Assembly: GCA_934141575.1 (NCBI GenBank) | Contig: CAKPCJ010000002.1 | Coordinates: 3,899 to 67,898, forward strand | Direction of reading: 5' to 3' | DNA: 64,000 nucleotides | DNA from: an uncultured Bacilli bacterium | GTDB lineage: Bacteria; Bacillota_I; Bacilli_A; RF39; UBA660 | In this document: positions 16,754 to 62,888 of the stretch, piece by piece | How positions within the stretch are numbered: position 1 is the first letter of the stretch | Layout of the letters: every line of letters starts with the position of its first letter | Position numbers and translations under genes: made by a program | The notes under the pieces: model-generated | What the model saw: the letters and a program-made list of their open reading frames with translations, nothing else | Told to the model about the DNA's origin: nothing | Database searches by the model: none

Positions 16754-16811
16754 AACTACAATTACTCCTTAATAACAAAGTATTATATCACACAATATAT
16801 AAAAAACAACT

Positions 16812-17513: not shown

Positions 17514-17541
17514 TATACATCACCAATCAACATTATAGCAT

Positions 17542-28300: not shown

Positions 28301-29235
28301 AAAAAAGATAATACATTTCTATTTTTTAAAATTGAAAATGGGATTGAAATATCTAATAAATGAAATTCTGACAAATTCAAATATTTTAATTCACTAAGTA
28401 TTTTATTTGTCACCATCTCATCTGAATTTTTTGTTAAATATTCTTCAATAGATGAATATTTAAAAAGTTGATTATACTGTTCATTTGTCAAACTTGAGTT
28501 ATTAAATTCTTGATCAATCGTATCTAAAATCGAGTCTGTCACTTTCTTTATGACTTTTTTTCTTTCAAATTCACTCTTTGAATTATTTATTTCACTTATA
28601 AATGTATAAATATTCGTTTTTAAAAGTATCAATTCTGCAATGCTATCAAATTCACCCATAAACTGCTTTAACTGATTATCACTAATTCCAAATTCATTAT
28701 TACGATCTCTAATCAAACAATAACTTAAATCCTTGTCCTTGTATAAATCCCAATTAAAAATCAACTCTTTAAGAGAAAGCTCCCCATGATTAAATTTCCA
28801 TTTTTGACTACGCAAATCATCAGAATCGCCTTCTAAAATAGGTAATATTCTATCCTTGTAAAACTCTTTCATACTTGATGAATAATCACTAGGTTTCATT
28901 TGATCTTTGATCATTTCATACAAAGTCTCATTTAAATTCTGAATATTTTCGTCAAAACTCATTATAATCTTTTTTAAATCATTTTCACCATTATAAATAC
29001 CATAATCTAGCAATTCCCAATCTAACTGTTTTGCTTTTTCCAACCCAAACTTTTTCACTATTTGTCTATCTCTAACATCTAAACAGGTTATTGGAATCTT
29101 ATCATCTAATTTATATTCTATAAACTCACTAAATAAAAGTGTACAATTATAAACTTTAAATAAAATATCTTTCGGAAGATCTAGTTTTTTACGAAATATT
29201 TGAGTTCTTTGATACTTATACCTCACTACTATCAC
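25330..29235 (-). CDS. Large cytoplasmic hypothetical protein with C-terminal Pol-beta-superfamily nucleotidyltransferase domain
   Basis: 1301 aa, no signal peptide, TM helix or Walker motifs. About aa 1040-1060 reads ELIDTGSTGRGTNKLGDGDFDFMM, which fits hG[GS]-x9-DhD. A third acidic beta-strand, VEIDAETIVDIDITF, lies about 50 aa later, followed by a helical segment with GGLGGVGIENWILQNGG. The first 1000 aa or so are unassigned. Confidence 0.5.
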   Translation of the reverse strand: MIVVRYKYQRTQIFRKKLDLPKDILFKVYNCTLLFSEFIEYKLDDKIPITCLDVRDRQIVKKFGLEKAKQLDWELLDYGIYNGENDLKKIIMSFDENIQNLNETLYEMIKDQMKPSDYSSSMKEFYKDRILPILEGDSDDLRSQKWKFNHGELSLKELIFNWDLYKDKDLSYCLIRDRNNEFGISDNQLKQFMGEFDSIAELILLKTNIYTFISEINNSKSEFERKKVIKKVTDSILDTIDQEFNNSSLTNEQYNQLFKYSSIEEYLTKNSDEMVTNKILSELKYLNLSEFHLLDISIPFSILKNRNVLSFLSEYGLKNVIEFDDECGHFFTKNNYEMLKNMYSLYLHYATNNPDTRTSIITKEIYSENNLGSYKPYTKDEFYEAIRRMIVYGPSDSTFADKCPDYRDITGAFRIKNPELFISDQSPEELKKAFYTKSITPQLLVKHPEYIEYLNGKNLESCFKSRNIEIRKSDSYLESENLYHFISENSDFNTTIKFITDNSNALEIIFDKSCFLFPRSLSSELVFSEKSNFSEILKQFKNIINSGKFKGVTEFLKIPDVELKDAFREYVLECGNDIDTKKVQYASDILSKLLTSNSSEIFTFRKELAPQILKSDNPFETFDKIESLFVKNNIPTVGKIYSCFDILHPNFEGFNFDNSMISPVLKSSTLMGKNIVIFSDLIKCSFGSNNRSVNDYLNNIDFASKLYESIRKGQIQYDELDQVEKDELLIFSRHLATLYNNTLQAKKMVEEVKLTGSVMDDLLELSKKMSPNGTLDYNLGDRVIRMFCGFAGINTLSQAKKYIYKKITTADEKNRNAAGYDMILERGDFIKGIGSVNYLKDILQNGSISKEYLGASAGSDFTPLDTDVSMIITNDSTISDKINSTAANSYGPIWFVLKNDDRFMITRDSNRTFDAKKDMTKMEVFYTGVVGKDHYGIRTGFASSEINYVVMEDYDSRVGLEIAMNGFYIPVADKNGKIIFTPNDYDKLRKKMSGLSYYGENNYVFSNNLITEDTQHFADQVEKYGYEIHEKREKITAVIKKSLGELDLQLKTYMDGDLTEGIVELIDTGSTGRGTNKLGDGDFDFMMRLDKSILSDSCKVEQLKKKMLKNFGKDGSSELTADGDFRLKNVEIDAETIVDIDITFDKKTDKVSYSTDMALQDRLSTIKKIDPKKYKYVVANILLAKEVLKQAGVYKPNRGETPQGGLGGVGIENWILQNGGSFVDAATDFIKMSVGKNFSEFKDSYYIWDFGENHLASRRGKYPHDNFVSSNMSEDGYNKMVQVLNTYINNVKLIDYNGVHK

Positions 29236-29367: not shown

Positions 29368-29718
29368 TTAAATATTCATTTCATAAAAATTAAAATCAAA
29401 AGAACTTCTAATTATCTTATATTTTTCGTGTTCTAATATTCTTAACATCTGAGTATTATTTTTCTCTATTTCTAAAGAAATTACATTTATATTTAACTTT
29501 CTAAACTCATTAATAAGTAAATTAAATGCCTCTTTACCATAATTATTTCCTCTATATTCTGGTTTAATATAAATATACATCATATTATTACCTTTTTTTG
29601 ATATAGCTGATATACCAATCATTGCATTATTTAAAAGTATTTCATAATAAAAATCATATTCTACATGTCTTTCTAAAAATATGCTTGAAACACTATTATT
29701 ACTTTTTAATGTTACCAT
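29368..29718 (-). CDS. GNAT family N-acetyltransferase (small)
   Basis: 116 aa. Acetyl-CoA binding motif IKPEYRGNNYGKEAFNLLINEF. Overlaps the upstream ORF by 20 nt. Confidence 0.55.
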   Translation of the reverse strand: MVTLKSNNSVSSIFLERHVEYDFYYEILLNNAMIGISAISKKGNNMMYIYIKPEYRGNNYGKEAFNLLINEFRKLNINVISLEIEKNNTQMLRILEHEKYKIIRSSFDFNFYEMNI

Positions 29719-30679
29719 CTTTTTCTCCCTCCATTGTAAAGTTAAAATCTAATATATCTTTAAAATATGATTGCATAAATTCATTAAAAGATTTATATTT
29801 TAAAGTTTGTTCTTTTAATTGGTCAATTGCATTTGCTGTAAATCTATTTGACTTTAAAATCATATTTTTCGTAAATAATATTAATTCTTCATCAGAAAGA
29901 ATTGTAGATTCACCCTTAAAGTTTTTCAAAACAGAACGCCCAGTTTTACTATAATTACTATCATATTCATTTCCCAAATGAACATAGCTATTTAGATATT
30001 GTTCCATTCTTTCACTAGTTTCATATATTCGTTTAGTTTGATCAAAGCAAATATATTTATGTAAACAATACACCGTCTCACCCTTAAAATTCGTAGTCTT
30101 TTCAACTTTAGTATAAAATTCATCCATACAACTTATTGGTTGAAACATATTAATCAAATATTTGCAATATGTTTTTATAAAATCAATTTTTGTGGTTTTA
30201 ACTGGTATTGTATATCTTTTTTGCAATTCATCTTTTTCTTCATCACTATTACACCTGCATTTTGCAGATAAATACAATAATCTCATTACCATAAAACGGT
30301 GCATACCATTAGTGAACACCAAGTATTTATTTGTATCAAATTCGATCAAACCCATTGGTTCTTCCCTGAAACTTCTCTGTAAGCCATTAATAACATTAGC
30401 ATCATCATATTCAAGCATGCTTATAGCTCTAGAATGATAACCATCTCCGCCTTCACAAAAAAATGAATCTAACGCATAAGGAAAAAACTTTGGAATACTA
30501 TTTGAAATAGAATATATTCCTATCATATTTTCTACAGACACATCTTCATTAATTGATTCGCCCTGTATTTCATATTTACTTATTATTTCGTTTACACTTC
30601 TTCCATCATATATATTTTCATCAATTTGAGATATATCTATAGAATTTTTTTCAATAAATTTTTTATTACAATCATTCAT
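29699..30679 (-). CDS. Hypothetical protein with ParB/Srx-like (DGQHR/DGQQR-type) motif
   Basis: 326 aa. The segment KYLVFTNGMHRFMVMRLLYL resembles the hhh-x-DG-x-HR-h-x-A motif of the ParB/sulfiredoxin-fold nuclease-NTPase domains (DndB DGQHR, DUF262 DGQQR). Otherwise unassigned. Confidence 0.35.
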   Translation of the reverse strand: MNDCNKKFIEKNSIDISQIDENIYDGRSVNEIISKYEIQGESINEDVSVENMIGIYSISNSIPKFFPYALDSFFCEGGDGYHSRAISMLEYDDANVINGLQRSFREEPMGLIEFDTNKYLVFTNGMHRFMVMRLLYLSAKCRCNSDEEKDELQKRYTIPVKTTKIDFIKTYCKYLINMFQPISCMDEFYTKVEKTTNFKGETVYCLHKYICFDQTKRIYETSERMEQYLNSYVHLGNEYDSNYSKTGRSVLKNFKGESTILSDEELILFTKNMILKSNRFTANAIDQLKEQTLKYKSFNEFMQSYFKDILDFNFTMEGEKDGNIKK

Positions 30680-46017: not shown

Positions 46018-47211
46018 TTAATAGAAGAAATCTGCAAGGCTAGTAGTAACCTTAGGTTCTAATTTACTATTTGATTTTTCCTCAATACTAGCTACGTTTT
46101 CAACTAATATTTGTTTTTCTTTTTCGTATGAAATATCATGAACTGTTTTTTTCTTTTGTTCAATTTCACTAATTATAGAATTAAATCTTGGATCATTTTC
46201 GGAAATACTATACTGAGAAAAAACTATATTTTTAACATCATCAAAAACTCTTTCAGTATTAATAACATCATATTTATCAGAAAAATCTAGTACTTTATTT
46301 TCAGTCTTTTTATTGCCACTTAGTTTTACAGAATCATCACTAGCAACTTGTTTTGTTATCGAAACAATCTCTGGAACAAAGTCTGAATTAACAAGTTGAT
46401 AAAATTGATCTATATCACCAGTAAATGTAGGCAATATTTGTGCAACAAACTTAGAATATAAATTATGCACTTCATCTAAATTTAAATTTTGAAAACCATT
46501 TACTTTTCCAACAATATTTCTAGTTAAATCAATAAATTCTTTATAAAACATAGATGTAAATTCTTGAATACTTTTATTTTTAGAATCATTATTTAAATTA
46601 ATTTGTTCAGGAATAATATTATCTAAACTGTCTATTCTTGAAGCAGCACGTTCTTTAGAAACAGCATAGTCATACACTTCTTCTTTCAACCTTTGAATAG
46701 CATTGCTATTCATATTTCTATATCCCATTATATCTTCTTCAAATTTGCCCTGAAATCTGAGAACTATACCTCTAACTTCATCCATAACATCATCTGATAC
46801 ATATCCATCAAGTTTTCTTTGAATAACTGGATAAACTTCATATAATAAATCGGTTATATTATTATCATAACTCCTCAATGACGAATTTTCTTCTTCAAAT
46901 TTACGACTAACTTGATTACTTTCAATATCCCCATCAATTGCAGCATTGCCAATAACATTTAAACGTGTAACAGTATCTTCTAAACCAACCTGGTATTTCC
47001 TGCGCATATTATTTATATAATCAATTTGTTCCATAACAATTGGTTCTATTTGACGTTCATTAATACCAATGCGATTATCCTGAAATTCCGTTACTATAGC
47101 ATCTATCAAATTAATAGCCGTACTTCTAACAAGATTGGATTCCTCGTAAAAATTTTCTAATAACGTATTCCCACATTTTCTAATAATTTCCTTAATATCA
47201 TCATCACTCAT
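46018..47211 (-). CDS. Hypothetical acidic protein
   Basis: 397 aa, helical and acidic, no recognisable motif. Downstream of ftsK. Confidence 0.4.
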   Translation of the reverse strand: MSDDDIKEIIRKCGNTLLENFYEESNLVRSTAINLIDAIVTEFQDNRIGINERQIEPIVMEQIDYINNMRRKYQVGLEDTVTRLNVIGNAAIDGDIESNQVSRKFEEENSSLRSYDNNITDLLYEVYPVIQRKLDGYVSDDVMDEVRGIVLRFQGKFEEDIMGYRNMNSNAIQRLKEEVYDYAVSKERAASRIDSLDNIIPEQINLNNDSKNKSIQEFTSMFYKEFIDLTRNIVGKVNGFQNLNLDEVHNLYSKFVAQILPTFTGDIDQFYQLVNSDFVPEIVSITKQVASDDSVKLSGNKKTENKVLDFSDKYDVINTERVFDDVKNIVFSQYSISENDPRFNSIISEIEQKKKTVHDISYEKEKQILVENVASIEEKSNSKLEPKVTTSLADFFY

Positions 47212-50270: not shown

Positions 50271-52082
50271 TTACTCTACTGTAACGCTCTTTGCCAAATT
50301 ACGTGGTTTATCAACATCCAAATTTTTAATTTTTGTAACATGATAAGCTAGTAATTGAAGTGGTAAAACAGAAATAATTGGCATAAACATATCTAAAGTA
50401 TTAGGAATAATATATGATATATCTGCACAATCCAAATCTTTATTCTCCCTAGAAAGAACAACTGTATACGCACCTCTAGATTTTACTTCCTTAACATTAC
50501 TTATCATTTTATCAAATAAATTATCATTAGTACAAACGCAAATTACTGGTGTACCGCTTTCTATCAACGCTATTGGTCCATGTTTTAACTCTCCAGCGGC
50601 AAATGCTTCAGCATGAATATATGATATTTCTTTCAATTTAAGAGCAGCTTCCATAGCAGTTATATAATCAAAAGATCTTCCCAAGAAAAATACATCTTTT
50701 GAATTACTTATTATTTTAGCAATATTTTTGATAGAATCACAATCTTTAAGAACTTTTCTCATATTACTACTTATATTTAAAATTTCTGATTTTATATTCT
50801 CTTGTGTTTCTAAATCAATAGTATTTAATTGTTCTGCAAAATAAAGTGCTAATACATAAAAAATAGCTAATTGAGAAGTATAAGCCTTAGTAGATGCAAC
50901 TGCTATTTCTGGACCAGCATATGTATAAATAACATCATCTGCTTCCCTAGTTATACTACTGCCTAAAACATTTGTAATAGCAAGTGTTCTAGCACCTAAA
51001 CTCTTACAAAGTTTTAAAGCGCTAAGTGTATCTGCTGTTTCACCAGATTGACTTACAAAAATGCATAGACTTGATTTAGTAACTAGTGGTTCTTGATATC
51101 TAAATTCACTGGCAAGATATGTACTAGCAGGAATATGAGCCAAATTTTCAATTAATCTAGCACCTACCATACCAGCATGAGCTGCAGTACCACAAGCTAC
51201 AATAAATATATTTTTTATCTTTGATGCATCAATATTAACATCGCCTAATGATATTTTTTCGCCTAATTTTACTTTAGAACCTATTGTTCTATCTATTGAA
51301 GAAGGTTGTTCAAAAATTTCCTTCAACATAAAATCATCGTAACCTTCCTTAGAAGCCGAATCTAAATCCCAGTTAACATGAGTAACTTCTTTTTTTATAA
51401 CATTTCCATCATAATCAGTTATAACTACATCATCTGGTGTAAGAATTGCCATTTCATTATCATTTAAAAAATAAACATCCCTAGTTCTACTAAGTAAAGC
51501 TGGTATATCTGAAACAATATACTTTTCATCATCTTTTACACCAATTACTAATGGGCTATCTTTTCTAATTGCCACAAGTTTATCAGGTTCATTACTGCAA
51601 ATCACACCTAATGCATAACTACCTTCTAAATCCTTAACTGCCTTTCTACAAGCTTCAACTATATCTCCATCATAGTAATAATCTATCAAGTGAACAATTA
51701 CTTCTGTATCAGTTTCAGACAAGAATTTATATCCGCCCTCTTCTAATGAATTTCTCAATTTAACATAGTTTTCAATTATACCATTGTGTACAATTGAAAT
51801 CGTATTTTTCATATTATTATGTGGATGAGAATTAACATCTGATGGCACACCATGAGTTGCCCATCTAGTATGCCCAATTCCAACACTGCCATCAATATCA
51901 TTATCTTTTAGCAATTCTTTTAAAACTGCTATTTTACCTTTTGTTTTACAAGTTTCTATTTTTCCATTTGATACAACTGAAATACCAGCTGAATCATACC
52001 CTCTATATTCTAACATTGTAAGACCATCAACTAAAAATTGTTTAGCTTTGTTCTTACCAACATAACCTACTATACCGCACAT
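50271..52082 (-). CDS. glmS: Glutamine--fructose-6-phosphate aminotransferase (isomerizing)
   Basis: N-terminal MCGIVGY (Cys nucleophile after iMet) plus full-length GATase-2 and tandem SIS domains. The ORF track starts 4 codons upstream (MEENM). The downstream ATG is preferred because GGAGG lies 5 nt upstream of it and the mature N-terminus must be Cys. Confidence 0.93.
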   Translation of the reverse strand: MCGIVGYVGKNKAKQFLVDGLTMLEYRGYDSAGISVVSNGKIETCKTKGKIAVLKELLKDNDIDGSVGIGHTRWATHGVPSDVNSHPHNNMKNTISIVHNGIIENYVKLRNSLEEGGYKFLSETDTEVIVHLIDYYYDGDIVEACRKAVKDLEGSYALGVICSNEPDKLVAIRKDSPLVIGVKDDEKYIVSDIPALLSRTRDVYFLNDNEMAILTPDDVVITDYDGNVIKKEVTHVNWDLDSASKEGYDDFMLKEIFEQPSSIDRTIGSKVKLGEKISLGDVNIDASKIKNIFIVACGTAAHAGMVGARLIENLAHIPASTYLASEFRYQEPLVTKSSLCIFVSQSGETADTLSALKLCKSLGARTLAITNVLGSSITREADDVIYTYAGPEIAVASTKAYTSQLAIFYVLALYFAEQLNTIDLETQENIKSEILNISSNMRKVLKDCDSIKNIAKIISNSKDVFFLGRSFDYITAMEAALKLKEISYIHAEAFAAGELKHGPIALIESGTPVICVCTNDNLFDKMISNVKEVKSRGAYTVVLSRENKDLDCADISYIIPNTLDMFMPIISVLPLQLLAYHVTKIKNLDVDKPRNLAKSVTVE

Positions 52083-52099
52083 ATTTTCCTCCATATTTA

Positions 52100-52235
52100 C
52101 GCATCATTCTATAATTTGTCCTAAAAATTACTTTTTAGATTTGCATAGAACTTACAAGGACATGCAAGCCTTAGGAACATCCGCCGAAAATTCGATAATT
52201 CCTTCCTCGTCAACTCAAAGAGTTCGGGCGCTATA
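52100..52235 (-). promoter_or_regulatory. glmS ribozyme (GlcN6P-responsive self-cleaving riboswitch) in the glmS 5' UTR
   Basis: Minus strand reads AGCGCCCGAACU...GUUGACGAGGAAGGAAUUAUCGAAUUUUCGGCGGAUGUUCCUAAGGCUUGCAUGUCC... This matches the B. subtilis glmS ribozyme core (AGCGCCCGAACU, GACGAGGA, UUAUCGAAUUUUCGGCGGAUG) almost base for base. Confidence 0.85.
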
Positions 52236-52371
52236 ACTATTACCAAAACTATTTCTTATGCACTCACCTCCTATGATATACACCATATTATATACATATG
52301 TTTATATCATGTTTACATTATATCAAAAAAATATAATAAAAAAAACGGTTTTTTTAACCGTTTACAAATAT

Positions 52372-53736: not shown

Positions 53737-54243
53737 TTAATATTCTTTTATGGAAATAAGCGTTTTCTTAAGTTTAGATTCAAATTTCTTAATTTTACTT
53801 TCATCAGAGCACTCAATATTAATAATAAACAAAGAATCATCCTCAAATTCATATGCTAAGCCAAGCATATACGTAACAGTTTCATTATCATAATATTTTA
53901 ACTTTTTTAAAACAGTATACAGCTTTCTGCCATTTAATTTTTCTTCTTTAGAAGATATAACTTCGCTTATGCAATCATAAAAAACGTAATCTCTTAATTT
54001 ACCTTTAACAATTTCATAAGGATAACTATAAACAGCTAAAGATGAATCAATAATATCATCATGAGTTAATTTAGCGTAATTATCATTATCCACATATTCT
54101 ATTTCCTTAGGTAACATAAATGTATATTTATCAAATTTTCTCCTTGTATATGACAAATTAACAAATGAATTAAAAGCCAATATAGATGATATAATAATAA
54201 TAACTATTATTGGTATAATAACTTTTTTCATTAAAACCTCCAC
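53737..54243 (-). CDS. N-terminally anchored hypothetical protein
   Basis: 168 aa with a signal-anchor helix and no motifs; third gene of a three-gene string. Confidence 0.35.
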   Translation of the reverse strand: MEVLMKKVIIPIIVIIIISSILAFNSFVNLSYTRRKFDKYTFMLPKEIEYVDNDNYAKLTHDDIIDSSLAVYSYPYEIVKGKLRDYVFYDCISEVISSKEEKLNGRKLYTVLKKLKYYDNETVTYMLGLAYEFEDDSLFIINIECSDESKIKKFESKLKKTLISIKEY

Positions 54244-54737
54244 TATTTAATTTTAACACTAGAATCAACGTCTCTTATTATGGAACTATCATAAGATTTT
54301 TCATAGCTAATATAAGATATAATCACTATCTTTTTCTTATCATACCTTATCAAAATTTCTACTATTTTGTCATCAAAAACATTTTTTGAATATGATGTAC
54401 TATCATCAATATCAAACTCTATTTCCTTGTAACCTTTTAATTTACTCAACACCTGATAATCAATACTTCTAGAAAGAGTTTCCAATGAATATTCATCATT
54501 TGATGGTATTTTTTCAAGCAAAATAACATCAACAGTACTAGTACCATAATTAAACCTAAACTTAGAATCAAATTCACCATATTTTTTATTCTTCAAAATT
54601 AACTTTTTAGGTACATTCATTGATATATAACTATTTTCTATTTTACTTACATACCTATTATTATAAATATTAAAAAGCAAAATAGTAAAATTAACAACAA
54701 GTAATAATGATATAACAATTAGTTTTATTTTTTTCAT
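54243..54737 (-). CDS. N-terminally anchored hypothetical protein
   Basis: 164 aa with a signal-anchor helix. Its start overlaps the upstream gene's stop. Confidence 0.35.
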   Translation of the reverse strand: MKKIKLIVISLLLVVNFTILLFNIYNNRYVSKIENSYISMNVPKKLILKNKKYGEFDSKFRFNYGTSTVDVILLEKIPSNDEYSLETLSRSIDYQVLSKLKGYKEIEFDIDDSTSYSKNVFDDKIVEILIRYDKKKIVIISYISYEKSYDSSIIRDVDSSVKIK

Positions 54738-54740
54738 AAG

Positions 54741-56054
54741 TTATCTAATCTCCATTCTATTAGGTTTAACTAAATAAGAACTTAGTTTATCTTTATCCTT
54801 TAACTTTTCAAGATTAGAAAATGGATTAGAAAGTGAAAGTGTACTAGTAGATATTAATATACTAGAATTTTGCATTATCTTCGTATTAACACCAATAACA
54901 TTACCACTACTACCTATAAGTGGCCCCCCTCTACTTTCACGTCCCAAAGGAAGAGCAATTTTAAATGAATATGACTTGCCAACTAATGTTTCTATATAGC
55001 TACCAATGTATATACCATCGTACGAAAGAGCAACTACATCATCAAAATCTCCAAAATATGGCAAAGATTGAATTTGAAGAGGAGTTCCAGTCTTTTGCAC
55101 CGTTTTAATTAGTGCAATATTATCATCACGAGAAAAAGATAATAATCCCTCATATGTATATAATTTATCATCATTAGAGAAAATTTTGTACTTACACCTT
55201 TGAAATATCCCAGAATCAAAAATATCAAAAGTTGTAACTATCACATTTGTATCTATAAAAAAGCCAGTAACTGTGTCAATAAGAGAATCTTCTTTATATA
55301 CTTCTATTTTAACAATACTTTTTATACTATTATTGTATATTTCATTAGCAAAAAAGTTAGAAATTTTTGGATTTTTATCAAAAAAAGAAACATTAAACCT
55401 TTTAATAAAATTATTATCATTATAATCGTTCAATTCACTCTCAGTATAATACACTATATTTTGTATTTTCAACATACCACTTGATAACTCATTTACAACT
55501 TTATACTCGATATACGCAATTTGATTACTCTCTTTAACCTTTAATATCAAATAATAATTTTTAAAATAATAATAAACCTTTACATCTTGAATTTGTTCCA
55601 AACTAATATTTTGAGAATTTAACGCAAACTTTAAACTCAATATATTATTTGTGGTACTGTTATACTTAAAATTAAGACCTGGGTCTTGATAATCAGAAAC
55701 CGAAAATACATTGAAGTTTTTTCTAACAATGTACTTATTTTTAAATCTGTCATTTGTTACTTTTTTATCATAAAAAGCCTCAGTAACTTCTCTAGAAAAG
55801 TCAATTAATATTTTTTCGTAATCACTACTTCTTGAATATTCACTTTTCTCGTTGCCAAGTGTATAATTCTTATTAACATACTTTTCTAACATACTATAAT
55901 CATAATCCGTCATATATGATCCAATATCTATTTCATTATTTAAATACATATTTTTTCTAAAAAAAATAAACAGATTAATAAAAAATAAAACTGCAACAAT
56001 TATAATACCAATAATAATAAACCTATCTAAAGACTTTTTGTTCACCATATACAC
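54741..56054 (-). CDS. Membrane-anchored protein with C-terminal trypsin-like (S1) domain, apparently degenerate
   Basis: 437 aa with an N-terminal TM helix. C-terminal DDNIALIKT (Asp region) and GRESRGGPLIGSSGNVIGVNT (GDSGGP-like). The usual TNxHV His region reads TNVIVT, with no His. Confidence 0.45.
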   Translation of the reverse strand: MYMVNKKSLDRFIIIGIIIVAVLFFINLFIFFRKNMYLNNEIDIGSYMTDYDYSMLEKYVNKNYTLGNEKSEYSRSSDYEKILIDFSREVTEAFYDKKVTNDRFKNKYIVRKNFNVFSVSDYQDPGLNFKYNSTTNNILSLKFALNSQNISLEQIQDVKVYYYFKNYYLILKVKESNQIAYIEYKVVNELSSGMLKIQNIVYYTESELNDYNDNNFIKRFNVSFFDKNPKISNFFANEIYNNSIKSIVKIEVYKEDSLIDTVTGFFIDTNVIVTTFDIFDSGIFQRCKYKIFSNDDKLYTYEGLLSFSRDDNIALIKTVQKTGTPLQIQSLPYFGDFDDVVALSYDGIYIGSYIETLVGKSYSFKIALPLGRESRGGPLIGSSGNVIGVNTKIMQNSSILISTSTLSLSNPFSNLEKLKDKDKLSSYLVKPNRMEIR

Positions 56055-56125: not shown

Positions 56126-56842
56126 ATGAAAAATAAAAAACCAATTATAGGTATCGTGGGGTACATTGAAAAAATAAATGAAAAAACATATATAACAGTA
56201 GATGAATTTTTTAGAGAAAGCATTATAATCAGTGGTGGCATTCCAATTCTTATTTTACCAACACAGCACTTGTATTATGACACTAGTATTGCGCCTAGCA
56301 AAATAGCCAGGTTAACAGAAGAAGAAAAAAAAGACATAGAAACAATTGTAGATTTATGTGATGGAATACTCTTCCCAGGAGGAAATTATTGGTACCAATT
56401 CAGTGAATATATTTTTGATTTAGCTAATGAAAAAAACAAAAGTATATTGGGAATATGTATTGGAATGCAATTAATGGTAGGAGCTATAAATAGAAAGTAT
56501 GGAGACGGAACATACAAAAATATAAAAAACGAAACCAAAATAGATCACTTAAACATACCAAGCGATCAATACGTTCACTCTGTTATATTTAAGGACAATA
56601 CTAAAATTGAAAAAATATTTGATTGTAAAGAAATAAAAGTCAATAGTAGACATGGATATCACATAGGAAATGTAAACGAATATACAATAAGCGGATATTC
56701 CGAAGATGGAATCCCTGAATCAATAGAATTACCTAACAAAGAATTTGTAATAGGTGTTCAGTGGCATCCAGAAAGATTAATACACAAAGATGAAAACAGT
56801 AAGAAAATTTTTAAAGAATTTGTAGATTCATGCAAGAATTAA
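56126..56842 (+). CDS. Class I glutamine amidotransferase-like peptidase C26 (gamma-glutamyl hydrolase family)
   Basis: 238 aa. Nucleophile elbow GICIGMQLM and a His region VQWHPE. Confidence 0.8.
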   Translation: MKNKKPIIGIVGYIEKINEKTYITVDEFFRESIIISGGIPILILPTQHLYYDTSIAPSKIARLTEEEKKDIETIVDLCDGILFPGGNYWYQFSEYIFDLANEKNKSILGICIGMQLMVGAINRKYGDGTYKNIKNETKIDHLNIPSDQYVHSVIFKDNTKIEKIFDCKEIKVNSRHGYHIGNVNEYTISGYSEDGIPESIELPNKEFVIGVQWHPERLIHKDENSKKIFKEFVDSCKN

Positions 56843-56942
56843 CAAAAAAAAGAAACCAATCATGGTTTCAAAATATCATGGTTAGATTCCATTTACACAG
56901 AATTTCTTACACCCTCAAGAAAATTGCAAAAGTAATTTTCTT

Positions 56943-57554
56943 TTATTTATGCCTCTTCTTCAAAATTAAAACTATTAATCCAAAAATGATTAAAAACACA
57001 GGAATAACTATAAAATAGTATTTTTTATTATTTGTTTCAACAACAACGTCATTAATAACCTTATTGTCATACTCTTCAACCATTTTTTTAAATTGATCGT
57101 AAGAAATATTACCAACATTATAAGTAATATCACATAAATCAATTTTTTTATTGGAACATACTTCAGAGTTATAATATTTATTATAATAAGGAATTGTAAT
57201 AAAGCGAACATAATTAAATTTGCTAGCACATGGATTATTACTAAAAACTGCAACTTCTATTCTATATTTTTTATTTGGGGATAATCCATCAATAAGTTGA
57301 TTACCAGTATACGTTTTATTATTTAAATAAATTACAAAATCATCTGTAACATTAGAAATAAAAATACCATATTCATCTTCTGATTTTTCACCTATATATT
57401 TAGTTTCAAAAGATATAAGAGAAGCAAACTTTTTCAACCTACTTAACTCCCTATTATCGCATTCAAGTGCATTAACCTTAGTAATTAAAATTATAGAGCA
57501 AAACACAACAGCAATCACTTTTTTCATATTAATAAATCGTCTCCAATATAGCAT
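56943..57554 (-). CDS. Secreted, C-terminally anchored hypothetical protein
   Basis: 203 aa. Signal peptide ending KVNA, a Cys-containing ectodomain and a C-terminal TM helix plus KKRHK stop-transfer. Confidence 0.35.
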   Translation of the reverse strand: MLYWRRFINMKKVIAVVFCSIILITKVNALECDNRELSRLKKFASLISFETKYIGEKSEDEYGIFISNVTDDFVIYLNNKTYTGNQLIDGLSPNKKYRIEVAVFSNNPCASKFNYVRFITIPYYNKYYNSEVCSNKKIDLCDITYNVGNISYDQFKKMVEEYDNKVINDVVVETNNKKYYFIVIPVFLIIFGLIVLILKKRHK

Positions 57555-57936
57555 CTATTTTATTAAATATTGCAAAATCATTTTCACTTGAATCATTTGT
57601 AAAACCATAAGTACCTGATGAAGTAGTAACTGACAAACTTACCTTTGGTGGCATTTCAATAACATCAATTATATCTATTTGAACATCTCCACTAGAAGAC
57701 GAAGTACTCCACCTTCTAATAAAACTATCAACAAATTTTTCACGTACAATCCTAAATTCACCATGATATCTATAATAATCAACATCAACAGCATCCAACA
57801 TAGATGCTTCTGTAACTTCTTTAAGTAAATAGTAGTCATTTTGATCATTAGTAGTTATATTAATAAACAAAAATATAAAACCTATCCCAATTATTCCAGC
57901 AACTACAAAACTAACAGCCCACATACTTTCTTTCAA
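57529..57936 (-). CDS. N-terminally anchored small hypothetical protein
   Basis: 135 aa with N-terminal TM helix MWAVSFVVAGIIGIGFIFLF and a Ser-rich segment. Confidence 0.35.
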   Translation of the reverse strand: MKESMWAVSFVVAGIIGIGFIFLFINITTNDQNDYYLLKEVTEASMLDAVDVDYYRYHGEFRIVREKFVDSFIRRWSTSSSSGDVQIDIIDVIEMPPKVSLSVTTSSGTYGFTNDSSENDFAIFNKIDAILETIY

Positions 57937-60149
57937 TCAAGCACCTTCTTTCTTGTTCTAGTATAAGAATTAAACCCATTTAACAATAATTCTTTATTTC
58001 TATTAATAATAACATCTTTATTGGCAGTAATCTTAGCTCCTAAATCTGTTAAAGTGCTTAGCCCAGCATAATTCAAACCACCTATACTCCACAAATAATC
58101 GTGATCAGTACCCCAACTATATACACCATTTACAGACGGAGCATAATCAAATTTTAAACTCCAACCTGTATAATTTGCTATAGAAGTATTCTTTTTAATT
58201 TTATTCATTGCTTCTCTAGTAAGTTCAATATGATACATAACTTTATTACTAGAGTTATTTATGTAATTTTTAATAATAGTTGAATCAAATTTCCAATTAC
58301 TTCTAGGTTGTCTTCCAGGAAATGGACTATCAGTATTTACTATTCTAAAATCCAAAAGTTCACTCCAATGATACGGAGGTGGTGTTGGTGGATCAGGATT
58401 ATCAGGATCACTACTAGAATCTCTAACATATAAATTACACATACGTTTTCCAAATTTATCACTTTCTGGATTTTCACTATAAATAATATAATTATAATCA
58501 CCCGTAGTTGTACTAATAGGAACCAACTTACCAATTATATTTTCAAATCTTCCAGAAAAATTAATATAATTATCTACTAATTCATACCTTCCAGTTTCAG
58601 CAACAGTATAGCTACTATAAGAAGATAAGAAATATGTACTCCATGTTTGAACCCACGAAACAGAGCAATTATAAACTATATTATTCATTGTACCATGAGG
58701 AGCATCAGGAGGACATGTAACTGTTGCACTTGAGACGCATCCACATTCTCCATCACCACCACTTGTTGAAACAGAACATACAGCGTTAGCATTTTTATGC
58801 TGAGCTTTATATGCTGTAACATATGAAGCCGCTAGACTACTAGAATTATCTGTAAATGTACCCAAAGAACAATATGATCCACCACCGACAGTAAAATTAT
58901 CTGTACCAGACATACTCTGTGTAGAAACCATATAAGCATTTAATGCAACAGAACCATCTTCCAAAGTTATTGTTTGATATGTTTTATTATTTGAATCAAT
59001 ATATAAGCTTGTATCACCTAATTCAGTTATTAATTTTTCTGAAATACTTGGTTTTTCAACCTCACTATACCCTCCTATAAGATCAGGATTACGTATAATT
59101 CCAGGTTGTAGTTTTGGTGCACTAATTCCAGAATAATTGTACTCATCACTTTCATGAACATACTTCATTACAGCCTTTGTAGAATCATTAATATCTTCAG
59201 TAAGAATAACACGATCTGGATGAACATTCCACTTTACATCAATGCTTGGAGAATATGATGATGAACCAGAACCAGGCAGCGAGCTTTCACTACAGGCCAT
59301 CCAATAAGCATCTCCAGTAAGAAACTGAATAAATTTACAACTATATGATGAAATATAAGAACAAAACATTTTCGCCTTATATGTAAAACTAGTTTTGTAA
59401 GGCCCACCAGGATATGTAGTTTTTTTCTCTATAGGACCATATTCCTGAATATAAGAACATCCCGTTGACATATTACCTATTGAATCTTTTGAATAGTAGC
59501 CACCAATTTGATTAGAAGCTGCACACAAAGGAGTGTTTTCTGTAAAATAAACATTATTTATATCATATTTATAATCTTCTATATTTGAATCATAATTATT
59601 TTTCTTATTTTCTTCTAACTCAAGTTTAGTACAAAGTGCATCCCTTCTTGCCTGTTTTGAAACATCAGGCATAGTATATTTTTCCTTATCTTTACATAGT
59701 TCAGAAAATGAAATAACATTACTCTCACTACAAGATTTTATATAATCCTGTGAATAATCGTTAAAAAAGTTAAAGTCCTTTGTAGTACACGTTTCATAAG
59801 TAACATCAAAAGAATTAGAACCATTATCATAAATTATAGCATAACCATTATCTGACAGCCTTTTACATATGTCATCTGCCCTACCCTTAGATGCAGAATT
59901 AGTAATAGAAGATGTATTTTTGCATAAATTACTTAAGCTATTATCAGCCTCAGCACTACAATCATATATTAGTTTAGTAGAATCATAATTATCAAAAAAA
60001 GTATAACCATCTTTTAAACACATACTAGCAGTTAATGAAACACCAGTTATTTTTCCAAATTTAACTGCATAAGTTTTACTTATACAAAAAAAATTAAGTA
60101 GCATAATAAATAACATAAAACAAAAATATTTTTTCAATAAAATCACCAA
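57933..60149 (-). CDS. Large secreted Cys-rich hypothetical protein
   Basis: 738 aa with a signal peptide, more than 30 Cys, and a Pro-rich linker SSDPDNPDPPTPPPY. No recognisable catalytic motif. It is 1 nt downstream of the IspH-IDS fusion gene. Confidence 0.4.
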   Translation of the reverse strand: MVILLKKYFCFMLFIMLLNFFCISKTYAVKFGKITGVSLTASMCLKDGYTFFDNYDSTKLIYDCSAEADNSLSNLCKNTSSITNSASKGRADDICKRLSDNGYAIIYDNGSNSFDVTYETCTTKDFNFFNDYSQDYIKSCSESNVISFSELCKDKEKYTMPDVSKQARRDALCTKLELEENKKNNYDSNIEDYKYDINNVYFTENTPLCAASNQIGGYYSKDSIGNMSTGCSYIQEYGPIEKKTTYPGGPYKTSFTYKAKMFCSYISSYSCKFIQFLTGDAYWMACSESSLPGSGSSSYSPSIDVKWNVHPDRVILTEDINDSTKAVMKYVHESDEYNYSGISAPKLQPGIIRNPDLIGGYSEVEKPSISEKLITELGDTSLYIDSNNKTYQTITLEDGSVALNAYMVSTQSMSGTDNFTVGGGSYCSLGTFTDNSSSLAASYVTAYKAQHKNANAVCSVSTSGGDGECGCVSSATVTCPPDAPHGTMNNIVYNCSVSWVQTWSTYFLSSYSSYTVAETGRYELVDNYINFSGRFENIIGKLVPISTTTGDYNYIIYSENPESDKFGKRMCNLYVRDSSSDPDNPDPPTPPPYHWSELLDFRIVNTDSPFPGRQPRSNWKFDSTIIKNYINNSSNKVMYHIELTREAMNKIKKNTSIANYTGWSLKFDYAPSVNGVYSWGTDHDYLWSIGGLNYAGLSTLTDLGAKITANKDVIINRNKELLLNGFNSYTRTRKKVLD

Positions 60150-60150
60150 C

Positions 60151-62034
60151 TTATTTATTTCTATATTTTAAATAAATAGCAAAACCATTTAGTATACTTA
60201 TAAAATTAGAATCTAGTTCCAACTTGTCCAATGATTCAATGGACAAATCAAATAGTTTTTCTTGAATCCTAGTAGCGTATTCATAAGCACCTGATTCTAT
60301 AAAAATGTTTTTAACATTAGTTAAAGCATCAACAGTCAAATTACTTTTCCCATAATATTTTAGTAATTCTGGTAAATATTCTCTTGCACTATCATAAATA
60401 TATGAAAATAAGATCGTTTGTTTAAACTCAGATACATCAGTAGAAACAGATTTATCAGAAGAATTTCCATATATTCCAAGGATATCATCCTTTATTTGAA
60501 AAGCAATACCCAAATTACTAAGTAATTCATCAAAGGAATCATCACATTTACCAGCTAAACACATTCCCAAGTGAAATGGGCCAATTACAGAATAATAAGC
60601 AGTTTTAAGTTTATATATTTCAAATATGTTTTTTTCTAAATCAGAAAACTTATCAAAATATTTAACCCTAAATGGCAATTCAACATCCAATATTTCGCCC
60701 CTTATAGTATTAATAACTATGTTATTATACTCATTTATAACAGATAATAAATTTTTGTTACTATTATAATTATCAAGTATTATTTTATTAACGAGATAGA
60801 AACCCAAATCTCCAATACAAATTCCCATTGAATTAGAAAAATCTTTCTTTTGGTTTTTATTTAAAAAATTATATTTTTCAGAATACTTAACAGGTATTGT
60901 ATCTTTTCCACGTCTTTTATTAGAGTCATCTATTATATCATCATGAATTAAAATAGAAGTTTGAAATAGTTCATATGCACTAGCTAACGCTAAATAGTTA
61001 TCATCATTACCACCATAAATTCGATATGCAAGGGATATAAGATACGCTCTAATATACTTGCCATCTGAATTCATTCTAACCAATTCAGAAATAGCGTTAT
61101 TTAAAATATCATTAGAATTATTCTCTAACATCTCCAAATTATACTTTTTTTGATTTTCCATGCATTTTGTTTTAACAGAATTATAATCTATATAAAACTC
61201 AATAACATTTTTGTATTCCTCTAACTCATGCTTCATAGTAGAAGCCCCAGCAGTTATACCAATATTTGTATCATTTGTAATATTATGTGTTGATAAAAAT
61301 TCAAATAATTCTTCAATACTAGAAATTAAATAACTACAGCAATAAGATGAACAAACATTTAGTAACTCTCTAGTATTAGAACTATTTTTACCCCCAATAA
61401 CTATCATAAAATCGGATTCTTTTGCAACATCAATTGAAGCCTTTTGAATAGAAGAACTAGCACCACAAATACTATTTACAAATTCTATATTTTTATCACT
61501 AAACTTTTTGCACAAATCATTATAAAGCCATAATGCTTTATTTCCGTTAAATGTTGTCTGGCATATAATAAAAATATTATTATTATCAATATTCAAAGTT
61601 TTAATATCATCTTGATCTTCAACTATATATGCCGAATCACAACACCATCCATTAGTACCCACAACCTCCGGATGATTTTTTTTACCTATTATAATTATAG
61701 AGTACCCTGACTTATATTTTTCATAAACCTGATCATGTATTTTAACTACTTTTTTACAGGTTGCATCATAATATTCAATATTATTACTATTTAAATAATC
61801 GTATGTTTCTTTCTTTTCACCATGTGCTCTTATAACAACACACCTACCATTAACTGATGACAAATCATCAATACACGAAATACCTTGTTTTTCTAATAAA
61901 TTTATTACATTTTTATTGTGCAAAATTTCTTTATAAACACATACATTTTTCCCTTGCTTAACTAAATTTAAAGCAAGATCAATTGCATTCTTTGAACCAG
62001 CACAAGTTCCACATACTTTAGAAACTCTTATCAT
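60151..62034 (-). CDS. ispH: Fusion protein: 4-hydroxy-3-methylbut-2-enyl diphosphate reductase (IspH/LytB) + trans-polyprenyl diphosphate synthase
   Basis: The N-terminal 300 aa or so carry the IspH blocks CGTCAGS (Cys1), DATC (Cys2), HPEVVGT, NSICGASSS (Cys3) and GGKNSSNTREL. The C-terminal 330 aa or so carry FARM LIHDDIIDDSNKRRG and SARM-like FQIKDDILGIYG. Start is chosen at MIRVSK (GGTGA RBS) rather than the track's upstream MMQ. Confidence 0.65.
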   Translation of the reverse strand: MIRVSKVCGTCAGSKNAIDLALNLVKQGKNVCVYKEILHNKNVINLLEKQGISCIDDLSSVNGRCVVIRAHGEKKETYDYLNSNNIEYYDATCKKVVKIHDQVYEKYKSGYSIIIIGKKNHPEVVGTNGWCCDSAYIVEDQDDIKTLNIDNNNIFIICQTTFNGNKALWLYNDLCKKFSDKNIEFVNSICGASSSIQKASIDVAKESDFMIVIGGKNSSNTRELLNVCSSYCCSYLISSIEELFEFLSTHNITNDTNIGITAGASTMKHELEEYKNVIEFYIDYNSVKTKCMENQKKYNLEMLENNSNDILNNAISELVRMNSDGKYIRAYLISLAYRIYGGNDDNYLALASAYELFQTSILIHDDIIDDSNKRRGKDTIPVKYSEKYNFLNKNQKKDFSNSMGICIGDLGFYLVNKIILDNYNSNKNLLSVINEYNNIVINTIRGEILDVELPFRVKYFDKFSDLEKNIFEIYKLKTAYYSVIGPFHLGMCLAGKCDDSFDELLSNLGIAFQIKDDILGIYGNSSDKSVSTDVSEFKQTILFSYIYDSAREYLPELLKYYGKSNLTVDALTNVKNIFIESGAYEYATRIQEKLFDLSIESLDKLELDSNFISILNGFAIYLKYRNK

Positions 62035-62147
62035 CTTATCACCCACATACACTAAGAATATTATATCATATAAACTTTTTAATTGCATCATTTAAGCAAT
62101 TTGGAATATAATATATTTGTATTTACTTCAAGGGGGAAAAAATAACA

Positions 62148-62888
62148 ATGCTAGAAAGAGAGATTTTAAACAATTTAGATTGTTTTATAATAGTAAAAGA
62201 CAAAGATGAAAAAATTATATACTACAACAAAGATTTAGCTTTAAAATTATCACTACAAGTTAAAAAAGACAATGAATTAGAATACAATGGAAAACATTAC
62301 AAAACATCAACAATTAAATTAGACAGTAACTTAACAATAGAAATGTATACTGATATAACAAAATATAAAGAAAACATAGAATATTATTCAAATAAATTAA
62401 AAAAGGATCAATTGACTAATCTTTACAACAGACATGTTTTAAATAATGCCTTTAAAAATATGTTAGAAAATAATATACCATTTTCCATAATATTATGTGA
62501 CATAGATTATTTCAAAAAAATAAATGATAAATATGGTCATATAGAAGGCGACAATGCTCTAAAATATATAAGTGAAATTCTTAGATCTTCTACTAGAAAA
62601 ACTGATTACATTATAAGATATGGTGGTGAAGAATTTCTAATAATATTACCATATTGCAATAAAGAAGTAGCTGAAGAAATAGCTAATAATATAAAACAAA
62701 AACTAAATAATAACGTATTTACGCTTTCAAATAATAGTAAATCAATAAAAATAACAATGACCTTTGGCATAACAGAACTTAATGAAAATAAAAACATCAC
62801 CAGTCTAATAAAAGAAGCTGATGATGCATTATATCAAGGTAAAACATCAGGAAGAAATAAAGTAAAAGTTTACAGCAATAAGAACTAG
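62148..62888 (+). CDS. Diguanylate cyclase (GGDEF domain) with short N-terminal sensor region
   Basis: 246 aa; active-site RYGGEEFLIILP (GGEEF) and the upstream DxLT-type motif QLTNLYNR. Confidence 0.8.
   Translation: MLEREILNNLDCFIIVKDKDEKIIYYNKDLALKLSLQVKKDNELEYNGKHYKTSTIKLDSNLTIEMYTDITKYKENIEYYSNKLKKDQLTNLYNRHVLNNAFKNMLENNIPFSIILCDIDYFKKINDKYGHIEGDNALKYISEILRSSTRKTDYIIRYGGEEFLIILPYCNKEVAEEIANNIKQKLNNNVFTLSNNSKSIKITMTFGITELNENKNITSLIKEADDALYQGKTSGRNKVKVYSNKN

Follow-up and report, generated by a model that had tools for sequence, protein, structure and literature searches.

IspH fused to a trans-isoprenyl diphosphate synthase in uncultured gut Bacilli: a predicted bifunctional enzyme beside a probable pilus-type gene cassette

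The window (the whole 64-kb stretch of DNA analysed here) encodes one polypeptide in which a complete IspH is fused to a complete trans-isoprenyl diphosphate synthase (IDS), and this fusion is conserved among uncultured gut Bacilli. With good confidence, the gene specifies a bifunctional housekeeping IspH-IDS enzyme, and the three genes downstream of it constitute a separate pilus-type cassette. Coordinates of all features are given in Table 1.

Table 1. Features of the fusion locus (positions in the window)
Feature	Position	Strand	Detail or basis
Fusion gene IspH + IDS	60151..62034	minus	627 codons plus stop
Shine-Dalgarno GGTGAT, fusion gene start	62038..62043	minus	Read from sequence
Putative extended -10-like promoter element TGATATAAT	62060..62068	minus	Inside the spurious 19-codon extension; inferred from sequence
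IspH (LytB) domain, residues 1-277	61204..62034	minus	Pfam + NCBIfam
[4Fe-4S] cysteines C11, C93, C190	62002-62004, 61756-61758, 61465-61467	minus	IspH domain
Predicted continuous connecting helix, residues 268-302, KHELEEYKNVIEFYIDYNSVKTKCMENQKKYNLEM	61129..61233	minus	AlphaFold2 + DSSP
IDS domain, residues 303-627	60154..61128	minus	PF00348
FARM DDIID, residues 365-369	60928-60942	minus	IDS domain
Second Asp-rich motif DDILG; extended DDILGIYGN	60475-60489; 60463-60489	minus	IDS domain
Large secreted orphan protein	57933..60137	minus	734 aa from TTG 60137 (738 aa from TTG 60149)
DUF5411 protein	57529..57936	minus	135 aa; PF17424, E 4.2e-43
Small protein	56943..57527	minus	194 aa from ATG 57527; start 1 nt after DUF5411 stop
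Terminator-like hairpin GAAACCATGATTGGTTTC then T8	56842..56869	minus	After fourth gene

Pfam analysis of the maximal open reading frame (646 aa) identified two domains: LYTB at aa 21-296 (PF02401, E 7.8e-70; score 235.6 bits, cut-off 24.5) and polyprenyl_synt at aa 333-592 (PF00348, E 7e-38; score 130.7 bits, cut-off 27). The IspH half also exceeded the curated cut-off of TIGR00216 ispH_lytB (216.5 against 187.85). Direct reading of the sequence revealed no internal stop across the 627 codons, between the domains or elsewhere, and the earlier note had rightly described an IspH/trans-IDS fusion in one frame: it is a single ORF with both Pfam domains and intact active sites. The N-terminal extension of 19 codons in the maximal ORF is spurious. 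The ATG at 62034, which the earlier note gave as the end coordinate, is the true start because the GGTGAT lies 5' of it and the homologs start at the corresponding Met. No good -35 was seen for the -10-like element located in the extension, and a promoter consensus scan of this AT-rich DNA yielded 54 sites versus 51.6 expected, which is no excess over chance. In public annotation, "hypothetical protein" was the sole source-given name seen for the fusion proteins.

In order to assess the two active sites, conservation was counted in an alignment of 51 fusion sequences. The cluster cysteines of the IspH half, found where the earlier note had placed them, correspond to C12, C96 and C197 of E. coli IspH and are kept in 50/51 (C11, one gap), 51/51 (C93) and 51/51 (C190) sequences. 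Residues H39, H71, H121, E123, T161, S218, N220 and S265 are invariant in 51/51; they correspond to the substrate-binding and proton-relay residues H41, H74, H124, E126, T167, S225, N227 and S269 of the E. coli enzyme. Sequence alignment matched this half to Aquifex IspH (Protein Data Bank entry: 3dnf; E 6e-36) as well as to E. coli chains, and Foldseek superposed the corresponding part of the AlphaFold2 model on 3dnf with a TM of 0.84 and on E. coli IspH with a TM of about 0.75. The model thus has the trefoil of three alpha/beta domains, and the N-terminus of the fusion is a complete IspH (HMBPP reductase, EC 1.17.7.4) that is predicted to be active.

In the IDS half, the IPP-binding residues K326/R329, the aspartates D365/D366/D369, R374/R375, K477, D516/D517 and K528 are invariant in the 51 fusion sequences. 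The FARM is of the DDxxD type and is followed by RRG, DDIID and R374/R375 being present in 51/51. The canonical second motif DDxxD is absent; it reads DDILG with an invariant Gly. The last position of the extended motif varies among the 51 sequences (31 D, 11 N, 9 S), and the window protein carries N there (DDILGIYGN). Both motifs lie at the positions reported in the earlier note, which had suspected that replacement of the last Asp by Gly might cost activity. We rejected the idea that DDILG inactivates the domain: Rv2173 of M. tuberculosis, which is active, carries DDVLGVFGD as its second motif (SARM; PMC12035560) and the C. glutamicum GGPPS 3lk5 carries DDLLGVFGD. Therefore the canonical DDxxD does not define the Rv2173/IdsA-like subfamily; DDILG is its normal second motif, and the DDxxG form is common to the fusion, Rv2173 and 3lk5. 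The closest solved relatives by sequence and Foldseek are 3lk5/3qqv and 8f8f, and the AlphaFold2 model of this half gave TM values of 0.84-0.85 to 3qqv and 8f8k.

The pocket that should determine chain length has Ser/Ala at -5 and Ile/Val at -4. Position -8 is always Phe, and residue 412, which aligns with Gln132 of Rv2173, is Phe or Tyr. With the three-floor model cited in PMC12035560, these residues predict a short product of C15-C20, about C20; the same chain-length rules gave inconsistent answers for Rv2173 (PMC12035560). A product longer than C15, as proposed before, is plausible with Ser/Ala at -5. A long-chain product (C30 or longer) was rejected in view of two aromatics one layer deeper in the pocket.

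The AlphaFold2 model of the fusion, built from an alignment of Bacilli sequences only, reached a pLDDT of 91.5 and a pTM of 0.86, the latter being an indirect gauge of inter-domain confidence. DSSP assigned to this model a 35-residue helix (268-302) in which the last IspH helix runs into the first IDS helix. The predicted architecture is rigid, with the two domains held in a fixed orientation by this single helix. IDS enzymes are homodimers, and the expected particle would therefore be an IDS dimer bearing two IspH modules. Stand-alone homologs of 407-425 aa were compared by hhalign to see whether they retain a vestigial IspH tail; their extension was collinear with the last ~45 IspH residues, but the match is weak (probability 3.6%, P 0.012).

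The three downstream genes follow the fusion gene with junctions of 13 nt, an overlap and 1 nt, each gene of the four having an RBS; that of the large gene, TGGTGA, comes directly after the fusion stop codon. No site comparable to the terminal hairpin was found between the four genes, and they are probably co-transcribed from the same promoter in the window species. The likely starts TTG 60137 and ATG 57527 lie 3' of the maximal-ORF starts, as indicated by where the RBSs lie, by the N-termini of homologs and by gene calls made independently; the 738 aa previously given for the large protein hold for a start at TTG 60149, and 734 aa is the likely length. The large protein has a signal peptide, 22 Cys and PTPPP at residue 584. 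Its relatives are scarce: a word-indexed search returned one cluster, and exhaustive HMMER searching returned four among 1.8 billion representative proteins. It is 27% identical to a 502-aa protein at the same position in locus L087. The DUF5411 protein, whose start overlaps the stop codon of the large gene, has an N-terminal membrane helix, no Cys and 584 homologous clusters; its model shows a long N-terminal helix and a small sheet with a weak fold match to pilins. The small protein has a signal peptide, a C-terminal membrane anchor and 5 Cys (4 in the mature part), is 40% identical to its L087 counterpart and is also called as 194 aa in same-species contigs. Weak homologs of it occur in Tad-type clusters (E 9e-07 and 7.5e-06). 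The earlier note was right about the PTPPP linker, about a signal peptide on the large protein and about gene junctions that are tight or overlap. Its count of more than 30 Cys in the large protein was too high, and its term "three Cys-rich proteins" is therefore inaccurate, given counts of 22, 0 and 5 and a Cys content that is the same in the cytosolic fusion (2.9%) as in the large protein (3.0%).

The IspH-IDS architecture occurs in more than 120 protein clusters of uncultured gut Bacilli at 46-61% identity; in the scan of genome contigs, the fusion loci were found with an alignment as query and none with a single protein. Since the sequences are metagenome assemblies, we considered whether the fusion could be an artefact caused by a frameshift in sequencing, by mis-assembly or by reading through two genes. 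No support for this was found. The 627 codons run without a stop, an identical fusion protein is present on at least nine contigs from different samples, and the more than 120 diverged clusters hold the same frame together with a conserved linker helix. A frameshift or assembly artefact was rejected because of the identical ORFs on independent contigs and the conservation of the architecture, and its probability is negligible. A different question is whether the C-terminal domain is not a housekeeping IDS but a specialised prenyltransferase, a terpene-forming enzyme or a silent prenyl diphosphate sensor regulating IspH. No NCBIfam IDS equivalog reached its cut-off (best scores 108/450, 94/600 and 89/500 bits), the best match being the family 2 encapsulin cargo polyprenyl transferase with 108 bits versus 450. 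The second motif is non-canonical with D/N/S at its extended position, and in locus L081 the fusion is followed 3' by CYTH, a faint FAD/lycopene-cyclase-like gene, UbiA and HAD genes, a hint that some lineages have a dedicated lipid pathway. However, all diphosphate- and metal-binding residues are invariant (K326/R329, FARM, RRG, K477, D516/D517 and K528), the nearest solved relatives are bona fide elongating synthases (TM 0.84-0.85), and the neighbourhood is of the housekeeping type in most fusion loci. We therefore regard such a specialised role as improbable and retain the housekeeping IDS.

Finally, the fusion and the downstream trio might form one system supplying prenyl diphosphate locally for an envelope process, such as lipid-linked assembly or prenylation of a surface structure, much as the earlier note had suggested in coupling isoprenoid supply to an envelope function. 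The four genes are indeed tightly packed with their own RBSs and a single terminal hairpin, and the trio stands beside the fusion in the same order in the window species, including same-species contigs, and in L087. Against this, locus L086, as closely related as L087 and with the same ABC transporter and GATase flanks, has no trio. The trio is also missing from every more distant fusion locus that was examined (L081, L082, L084 and L088), where other neighbours are found. In three distant Bacilli MAGs (L090-L092) the large-protein/DUF5411 pair opens Tad-type clusters, directly before RcpC-like and T2SSE ATPase genes and together with platform protein genes; gene calling over 18 kb there gave no fusion gene. 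Neither Pfam nor NCBIfam detected a prenyl-chemistry-related domain in any trio protein. Such coupling is improbable, and the trio is more probably a separate, variable pilus-type surface cassette than an isoprenoid partner.

For the fusion as a housekeeping enzyme, the following mechanism is proposed. The N-terminal IspH would use its [4Fe-4S] cluster to convert HMBPP into a mixture of IPP and DMAPP, and the C-terminal IDS would condense both, coming from the same polypeptide, to an allylic diphosphate of C15-C20; the most likely product is GGPP, formed by way of FPP. This product would be directed to undecaprenyl phosphate for the cell wall and to any further prenyl acceptors. Genes for a class A PBP and for FtsW/RodA are present in the window; the organism therefore makes peptidoglycan and requires a polyprenyl carrier. 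From these data we infer both activities, the product length, a role as the main short-chain IDS and a kinetic advantage by proximity or 1:1 co-expression; true substrate channelling does not follow from the fusion per se. No second LYTB or IDS gene was found within the 64-kb window or 10 kb beyond. In L084, uppS lies 1.4 kb from the fusion. No ispA follows xseA-xseB in that locus, which is a hint only. Linkage of ispH to this IDS subtype recurs outside the Bacilli: a Spirochaetota MAG encodes IspH fused to an IDS of the same DDILG type, and in Omnitrophota and Planctomycetia the gene for such an IDS adjoins or overlaps ispH with the gene order reversed. A more speculative reading, which we consider rather unlikely in its entirety, is that a whole clade of gut Bacilli with small genomes has the fusion as its only IspH and its only short-chain IDS; there, a rigid (IspH-IDS)2 particle would pass IPP and DMAPP, in roughly the ratio in which they are made, straight into elongation, and isomerase and a free C5 pool would be unneeded. 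If this were true, the gene neighbourhood seen in Omnitrophota and Planctomycetia and the Spirochaetota fusion, which looks independent, would point to a general physical IspH-IDS complex in bacteria that is so far unrecognised.

IspH, a target for anti-infectives, is an oxygen-sensitive bottleneck enzyme in the MEP pathway. To our knowledge, the handover of its mixed IPP/DMAPP output to downstream enzymes is poorly understood. A conserved fusion to the first consuming enzyme provides a "Rosetta stone" argument for physical cooperation of IspH and IDS, and the argument is stronger because the same IDS subtype adjoins ispH in unrelated phyla. Metabolic engineers already make artificial fusions to drive C5 units towards FPP or GGPP, and the natural fusion offers a ready-made, evolution-tested design for such work. 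The finding would also correct the "hypothetical protein" annotation and removes a misleading lead, as the secreted neighbours are more probably pilus-type surface parts than partners in isoprenoid metabolism.

An IspH-IDS fusion was not described in the literature searched, including surveys of MEP-pathway diversity and the 2015 catalogue of IspH fusions (PMC4746011), in line with the earlier note, which knew of no such description. The partners listed in that catalogue are RPS1, UbiA, CMP kinase, helicase, FBP and UDP, with no IDS among them (PMC4746011). The fusion resembles the IspH-UbiA "Rosetta stone" fusion of sulfate-reducing bacteria in joining an N-terminal IspH to a later isoprenoid enzyme in many species of anaerobes (PMC4746011), and IspH-UbiA was proposed to raise local IPP, DMAPP or prenyl diphosphate for its partner (Rao et al. 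2015, PMC4746011). However, UbiA is a membrane-embedded aromatic prenyltransferase that does not use IspH products directly, whereas the partner in the window is a soluble trans-IDS and the immediate consumer of IPP and DMAPP. With IspH-RPS1 of Clostridia and other Firmicutes (NF000907, Rao et al. 2015) it shares a partner C-terminal to IspH and an occurrence in gut anaerobes, and the IspH half scored best against NF000907 (241 bits over model positions 3-308; cut-off 624). Unlike IspH-RPS1, it lacks S1 repeats and has a metabolically linked partner, whereas the role of RPS1 is unclear; neither an S1 or UbiA Pfam match nor a hydrophobic 19-mer was found in the fusion protein.

The IDS half resembles the actinobacterial enzymes Rv2173 and C. 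glutamicum GGPPS 3lk5/3qqv (E 1.6e-22 and 6.3e-17; identity about 20-30%) in a FARM without insertion (DDxxD), the same long post-FARM insert and, apart from the variable last position, the extended second motif DDxLGxxGD. Those enzymes stand alone, and Rv2173 has a Trp at -5 (C10-C15 product) in contrast to Ser/Ala in the fusion family. As a natural fusion within one isoprenoid pathway, the protein is comparable to IspDF, the only MEP-pathway fusion mentioned in two reviews (PMC10663253, PMC13001223), and to the prenyltransferase/terpene synthase "assembly-line" enzymes. IspDF, however, joins non-consecutive MEP steps, and in the fungal fusions an IDS is coupled to a cyclase; none of them links the final MEP enzyme with the first enzyme of elongation, as the fusion described here does. 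Its downstream trio resembles the Tad/Flp-type (CpaF-dependent) pilus clusters of Gram-positive gut bacteria (PMC9523054) in combining DUF5411 with a very large secreted protein encoded upstream. It differs from them in that T2SSE ATPase, platform and RcpC/CpaB genes are absent around the window DUF5411 gene (64 kb and 10 kb beyond) and in that the pilin fold match is weak.

The minus-strand gene was contained in a maximal ORF of 646 codons (62091 to 60151 of the window), in which Pfam predicted two enzymatic domains, LYTB (aa 21-296, E 7.8e-70) and polyprenyl_synt (aa 333-592, E 7e-38). Its score against the NCBIfam equivalog TIGR00216 (ispH_lytB) was 216.5, exceeding the curated cut-off of 187.85. 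The sequence context indicates ATG 62034 as the real start, in accordance with the end coordinate in the earlier note: a Shine-Dalgarno-like element lies upstream and the corresponding start Met is the N-terminus in almost all homologs. The fusion protein would thus comprise 627 aa, whose numbering is used for all its residues, and no stop codon interrupts it.

The core observation of the earlier note, IspH fused to a trans-isoprenyl diphosphate synthase (IDS), was confirmed. A word-indexed protein search revealed at least 120 clusters with 46-61% identity to the fusion; the members listed were 571-656 aa long and all contained both Pfam domains. Moreover, nine or more contigs of different samples encoded the maximal product of 646 aa in identical form, and the gene order of the fusion locus matched in two independent assemblies. 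An assembly artefact was rejected because of this identical product and the presence of both domains in the clusters. The genome records with close relatives come from MAGs of uncultured Bacilli or 'Tenericutes' recovered from the gut of rabbits, mice and humans, and the only name given to the fusion proteins in the sources is 'hypothetical protein [Bacilli bacterium]'. The fusion is conserved and predicted to be a bifunctional enzyme.

Conservation was counted across 51 aligned fusion proteins. In the IspH half, which aligned to solved IspH chains, the cluster ligands C11, C93, and C190 were invariant (C11 was a gap in one sequence), as were H39, H71, H121, E123, T161, S218, N220, and S265, which correspond to the substrate-binding and proton-relay positions of E. 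coli IspH. The invariant residues of the synthase half were G325-K326-R329, D365/D366/D369 of the first Asp-rich motif, R374/R375, K477, D516/D517, K528, D533, and K538. This comparative analysis indicates two intact active sites that are maintained by selection. The AlphaFold2 model built on the 51-sequence alignment reached a mean pLDDT of 91.5 and a pTM of 0.86, which for a two-domain protein of 627 residues points to a confident relative orientation of the domains. According to DSSP, a single unbroken helix (residues 268-302) joins the last helix of IspH with the first one of the synthase, and the model thus predicts no flexible linker between the halves. Foldseek placed the IspH half on Aquifex IspH 3dnf (TM 0.84) and the synthase half on C. 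glutamicum GGPPS 3qqv (TM 0.84) and Rv2173 8f8k (TM 0.85); no PDB entry found in this search spanned more than half of the model.

The earlier note had regarded the second Asp-rich motif, KDDILG without its last Asp, as a possible defect. The closest solved relative of the C-terminal domain is C. glutamicum GGPPS 3lk5 (E 1.6e-22), followed by M. tuberculosis Rv2173 (8f8f, E 6.3e-17), and these short-chain synthases read DDLLGVFGD and DDVLGVFGD at this position. Rv2173 with its DDVLGVFGD motif is active and binds three metals (PMC12035560). Since both enzymes share the Gly and Gly520 is invariant among the 51 fusion proteins, DDxxG is a trait of the subfamily and not a lesion, with the caveat that the last position of the extended motif varies (Asp, Asn and Ser in 31, 11 and 9 of 51 sequences; the window protein has Asn). 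In order to estimate product length, the "three floors" pocket residues of Rv2173 (PMC12035560) were transferred to the fusion via HMMER alignment. Under this model, the combination of an open floor 1 with an aromatic floor 2 predicts a product of about C20; Y481 is the conserved counterpart of Rv2173 Y198, described as closing the pocket at its base (PMC12035560). The prediction supports the proposal of a product longer than C15 and speaks against a synthase of the medium- or long-chain type. None of the NCBIfam product-class models reached its own cut-off with the fusion.

Linkage of ispH and a synthase gene was also found in other lineages. A Spirochaetota MAG contains a single 677-aa ORF with both domains (28% identity over the full length; motif FQIRDDILG). 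In two Omnitrophota and two Planctomycetia MAGs the synthase gene lies directly upstream of ispH, adjacent or overlapping, and the encoded synthases share the motif FQIKDDILG/IIG; in a woesearchaeote the downstream synthase gene is overlapped by ispH and the second motif is the canonical DDIID. Such a mixture of fused and closely adjacent genes in different lineages matches the classical Rosetta-stone pattern and supports functional coupling of IspH and the synthase.

Stand-alone homologs of the synthase half (407-425 aa, 43-49% identity) occur in some uncultured Bacilli MAGs. Their N-terminal extension of 70-90 aa aligns collinearly, with weak support, to the last ~45 IspH residues and the linker helix (hhalign P 0.012, probability 3.6%). 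They may be fusions which secondarily lost IspH, in which case these lineages would also have lost the MEP pathway. At fusion locus L081 (9915-14941; fusion 53% identical), the genes downstream of the fusion on its strand are a CYTH-domain gene, a gene with faint FAD-binding/lycopene-cyclase-like matches, a UbiA prenyltransferase gene and a 711-aa HAD-family gene, possibly a dedicated prenyl-lipid pathway supplied by the fusion. At fusion locus L084 (11263-11979, 15808-17887; 1.09-Mb scaffold), uppS is located 1.4 kb from the fusion, and a nearby xseA-xseB pair is directly followed by a SpoIVB-like peptidase gene. In Bacillus subtilis this pair is followed by ispA and dxs; the gene order at L084 is a hint that the fusion may have replaced canonical ispA.

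Downstream of the fusion, the 1-nt and overlapping junctions described before are present. Because the junctions are tight and no hairpin comparable to the terminal one lies between the four genes, the fusion and the three following genes are likely co-transcribed in the window species. The description of these as three Cys-rich proteins was not borne out: the large protein contains 22 Cys instead of more than 30, a fraction equal to that of the fusion enzyme, and the DUF5411 protein contains none. Nor did the idea of an operon coupling isoprenoid supply to an envelope function find support. At locus L087, the fusion (58% identical) is succeeded by the genes of a 502-aa protein, DUF5411 and a 202-aa protein, and then by GATase. 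At L086 (fusion also 58%) the flanking genes are likewise an ABC transporter (upstream) and GATase (downstream), and the trio is wholly missing; at fusion loci of more distant relatives the next genes are CYTH/UbiA/HAD or lipase/TraB genes, or there is none on the same strand. These absences break the functional link to the fusion. Between the window and L087 the trio members diverge at very unequal rates (DUF5411 61%, small protein 40%, large protein 27% identity); for the large protein, a search of 1.8 billion representative proteins yielded no more than four relatives. The gene of a 246-aa GGDEF diguanylate cyclase (62148-62888, plus strand) lies divergently between that of the ABC-2 transporter and the fusion. 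Contigs of the same species also contain it, but L086 and L087 lack it at this position, and it is thus a second lineage-specific insertion.

In three other Bacilli MAGs the order is a 957-1391-aa orphan, DUF5411, RcpC-like, T2SSE ATPase, two genes of ~260-300 aa and several small genes, with weak homologs of the small protein just upstream. This layout corresponds to a putative Tad/Flp-type pilus locus. A published survey likewise places DUF5411 of gut Clostridia in systems predicted to depend on CpaF (PMC9523054). Pfam matches in the Bacilli clusters were confined to the RcpC-like and T2SSE ATPase genes; about ten more conserved genes, including that of the 957-1391-aa protein, are unannotated.

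The window is otherwise ordinary chromosome of a walled Bacillota organism (RecA, RNase Y, class A PBP, FtsW/RodA, PolA, SMC, ScpAB, FtsK, ComEA/ComEC, GlmS), and the glmS ribozyme and class B RNase P RNA fit this origin. Three membrane-anchored proteins of 437, 164, and 168 aa (53737-56054, minus strand), kept in L086, had no significant Pfam family. On visual inspection, the C-terminal region of the 437-aa protein is trypsin-like; as ESRGGPL appears to replace the usual GNSGGPL, the protein may lack the catalytic Ser. Its L081 relative gave a weak Trypsin_2 match. The sizeable ORFs without Pfam family, among which a 1301-aa ORF adjoins a 326-aa ORF, had no homolog in the related loci searched.

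Coordinates and positions of features in the window, the fusion protein and related loci
Feature	Position	Strand	Remark
Extended -10-like TGATATAAT	62068-62060	minus	read from sequence
Shine-Dalgarno-like GGTGAT	62043-62038	minus	precedes ATG 62034
Fusion stop TAA	60153-60151	minus	TGGTGA immediately after
Large-gene start TTG	60137	minus	product begins MKKYFCF
Large-gene stop / DUF5411 start			overlapping
Third-gene start ATG	57527	minus	1 nt past DUF5411 stop
Hairpin and T8 tail	56869-56842	minus	after third trio gene
glmS ribozyme	52096-52243	minus	directly upstream of glmS (50271-52094)
Class B RNase P RNA	4080-4424	minus	
ORFs without Pfam family	25330-29235 (-), 29699-30679 (-), 13788-14756, 16022-18201, 20203-21231, 46018-47211		
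Pocket floor 1	S360, I361, L449		S360: S 38, A 13 of 51
Pocket floor 2	F357, F412, R/K445		F357 invariant; F412: F 37, Y 8 of 51
Pocket floor 3	A353, N416, I441		
Stand-alone synthase-half homologs	L007:7905-9179, L004:1174-2448, L002:7854-9092, L005:5581-6801		uncultured Bacilli MAGs
Putative Tad-type pilus clusters	L090:9422-13093, L091:9455-13412, L092:9457-13429		uncultured gut Bacilli

The earlier note knew of no described fusion of this kind, and none was found in the searchable full texts, which mostly exclude subscription journals; the pair of LYTB and polyprenyl_synt is already contained in precomputed Pfam annotations. A survey of every IspH in InterPro listed IspH-RPS1 (447 examples), IspH-UbiA (47) and single cases with CMP kinase, helicase, FBP, and UDP partners, and no trans-IDS partner (Rao et al., 2015; PMC4746011). 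IspDF is the sole fusion named in two papers on the diversity of the MEP pathway in bacteria, one a comparative-genomics study and the other a review (PMC10663253, PMC13001223). Both halves are well-known enzymes with the chemistry that would be predicted; most likely, HMBPP would be converted to a C15-C20 prenyl diphosphate on one rigid fusion polypeptide. The IspH-IDS fusion adds a new domain combination to a known class, the natural fusions of isoprenoid-pathway enzymes, and its nearest precedent is IspH-UbiA.
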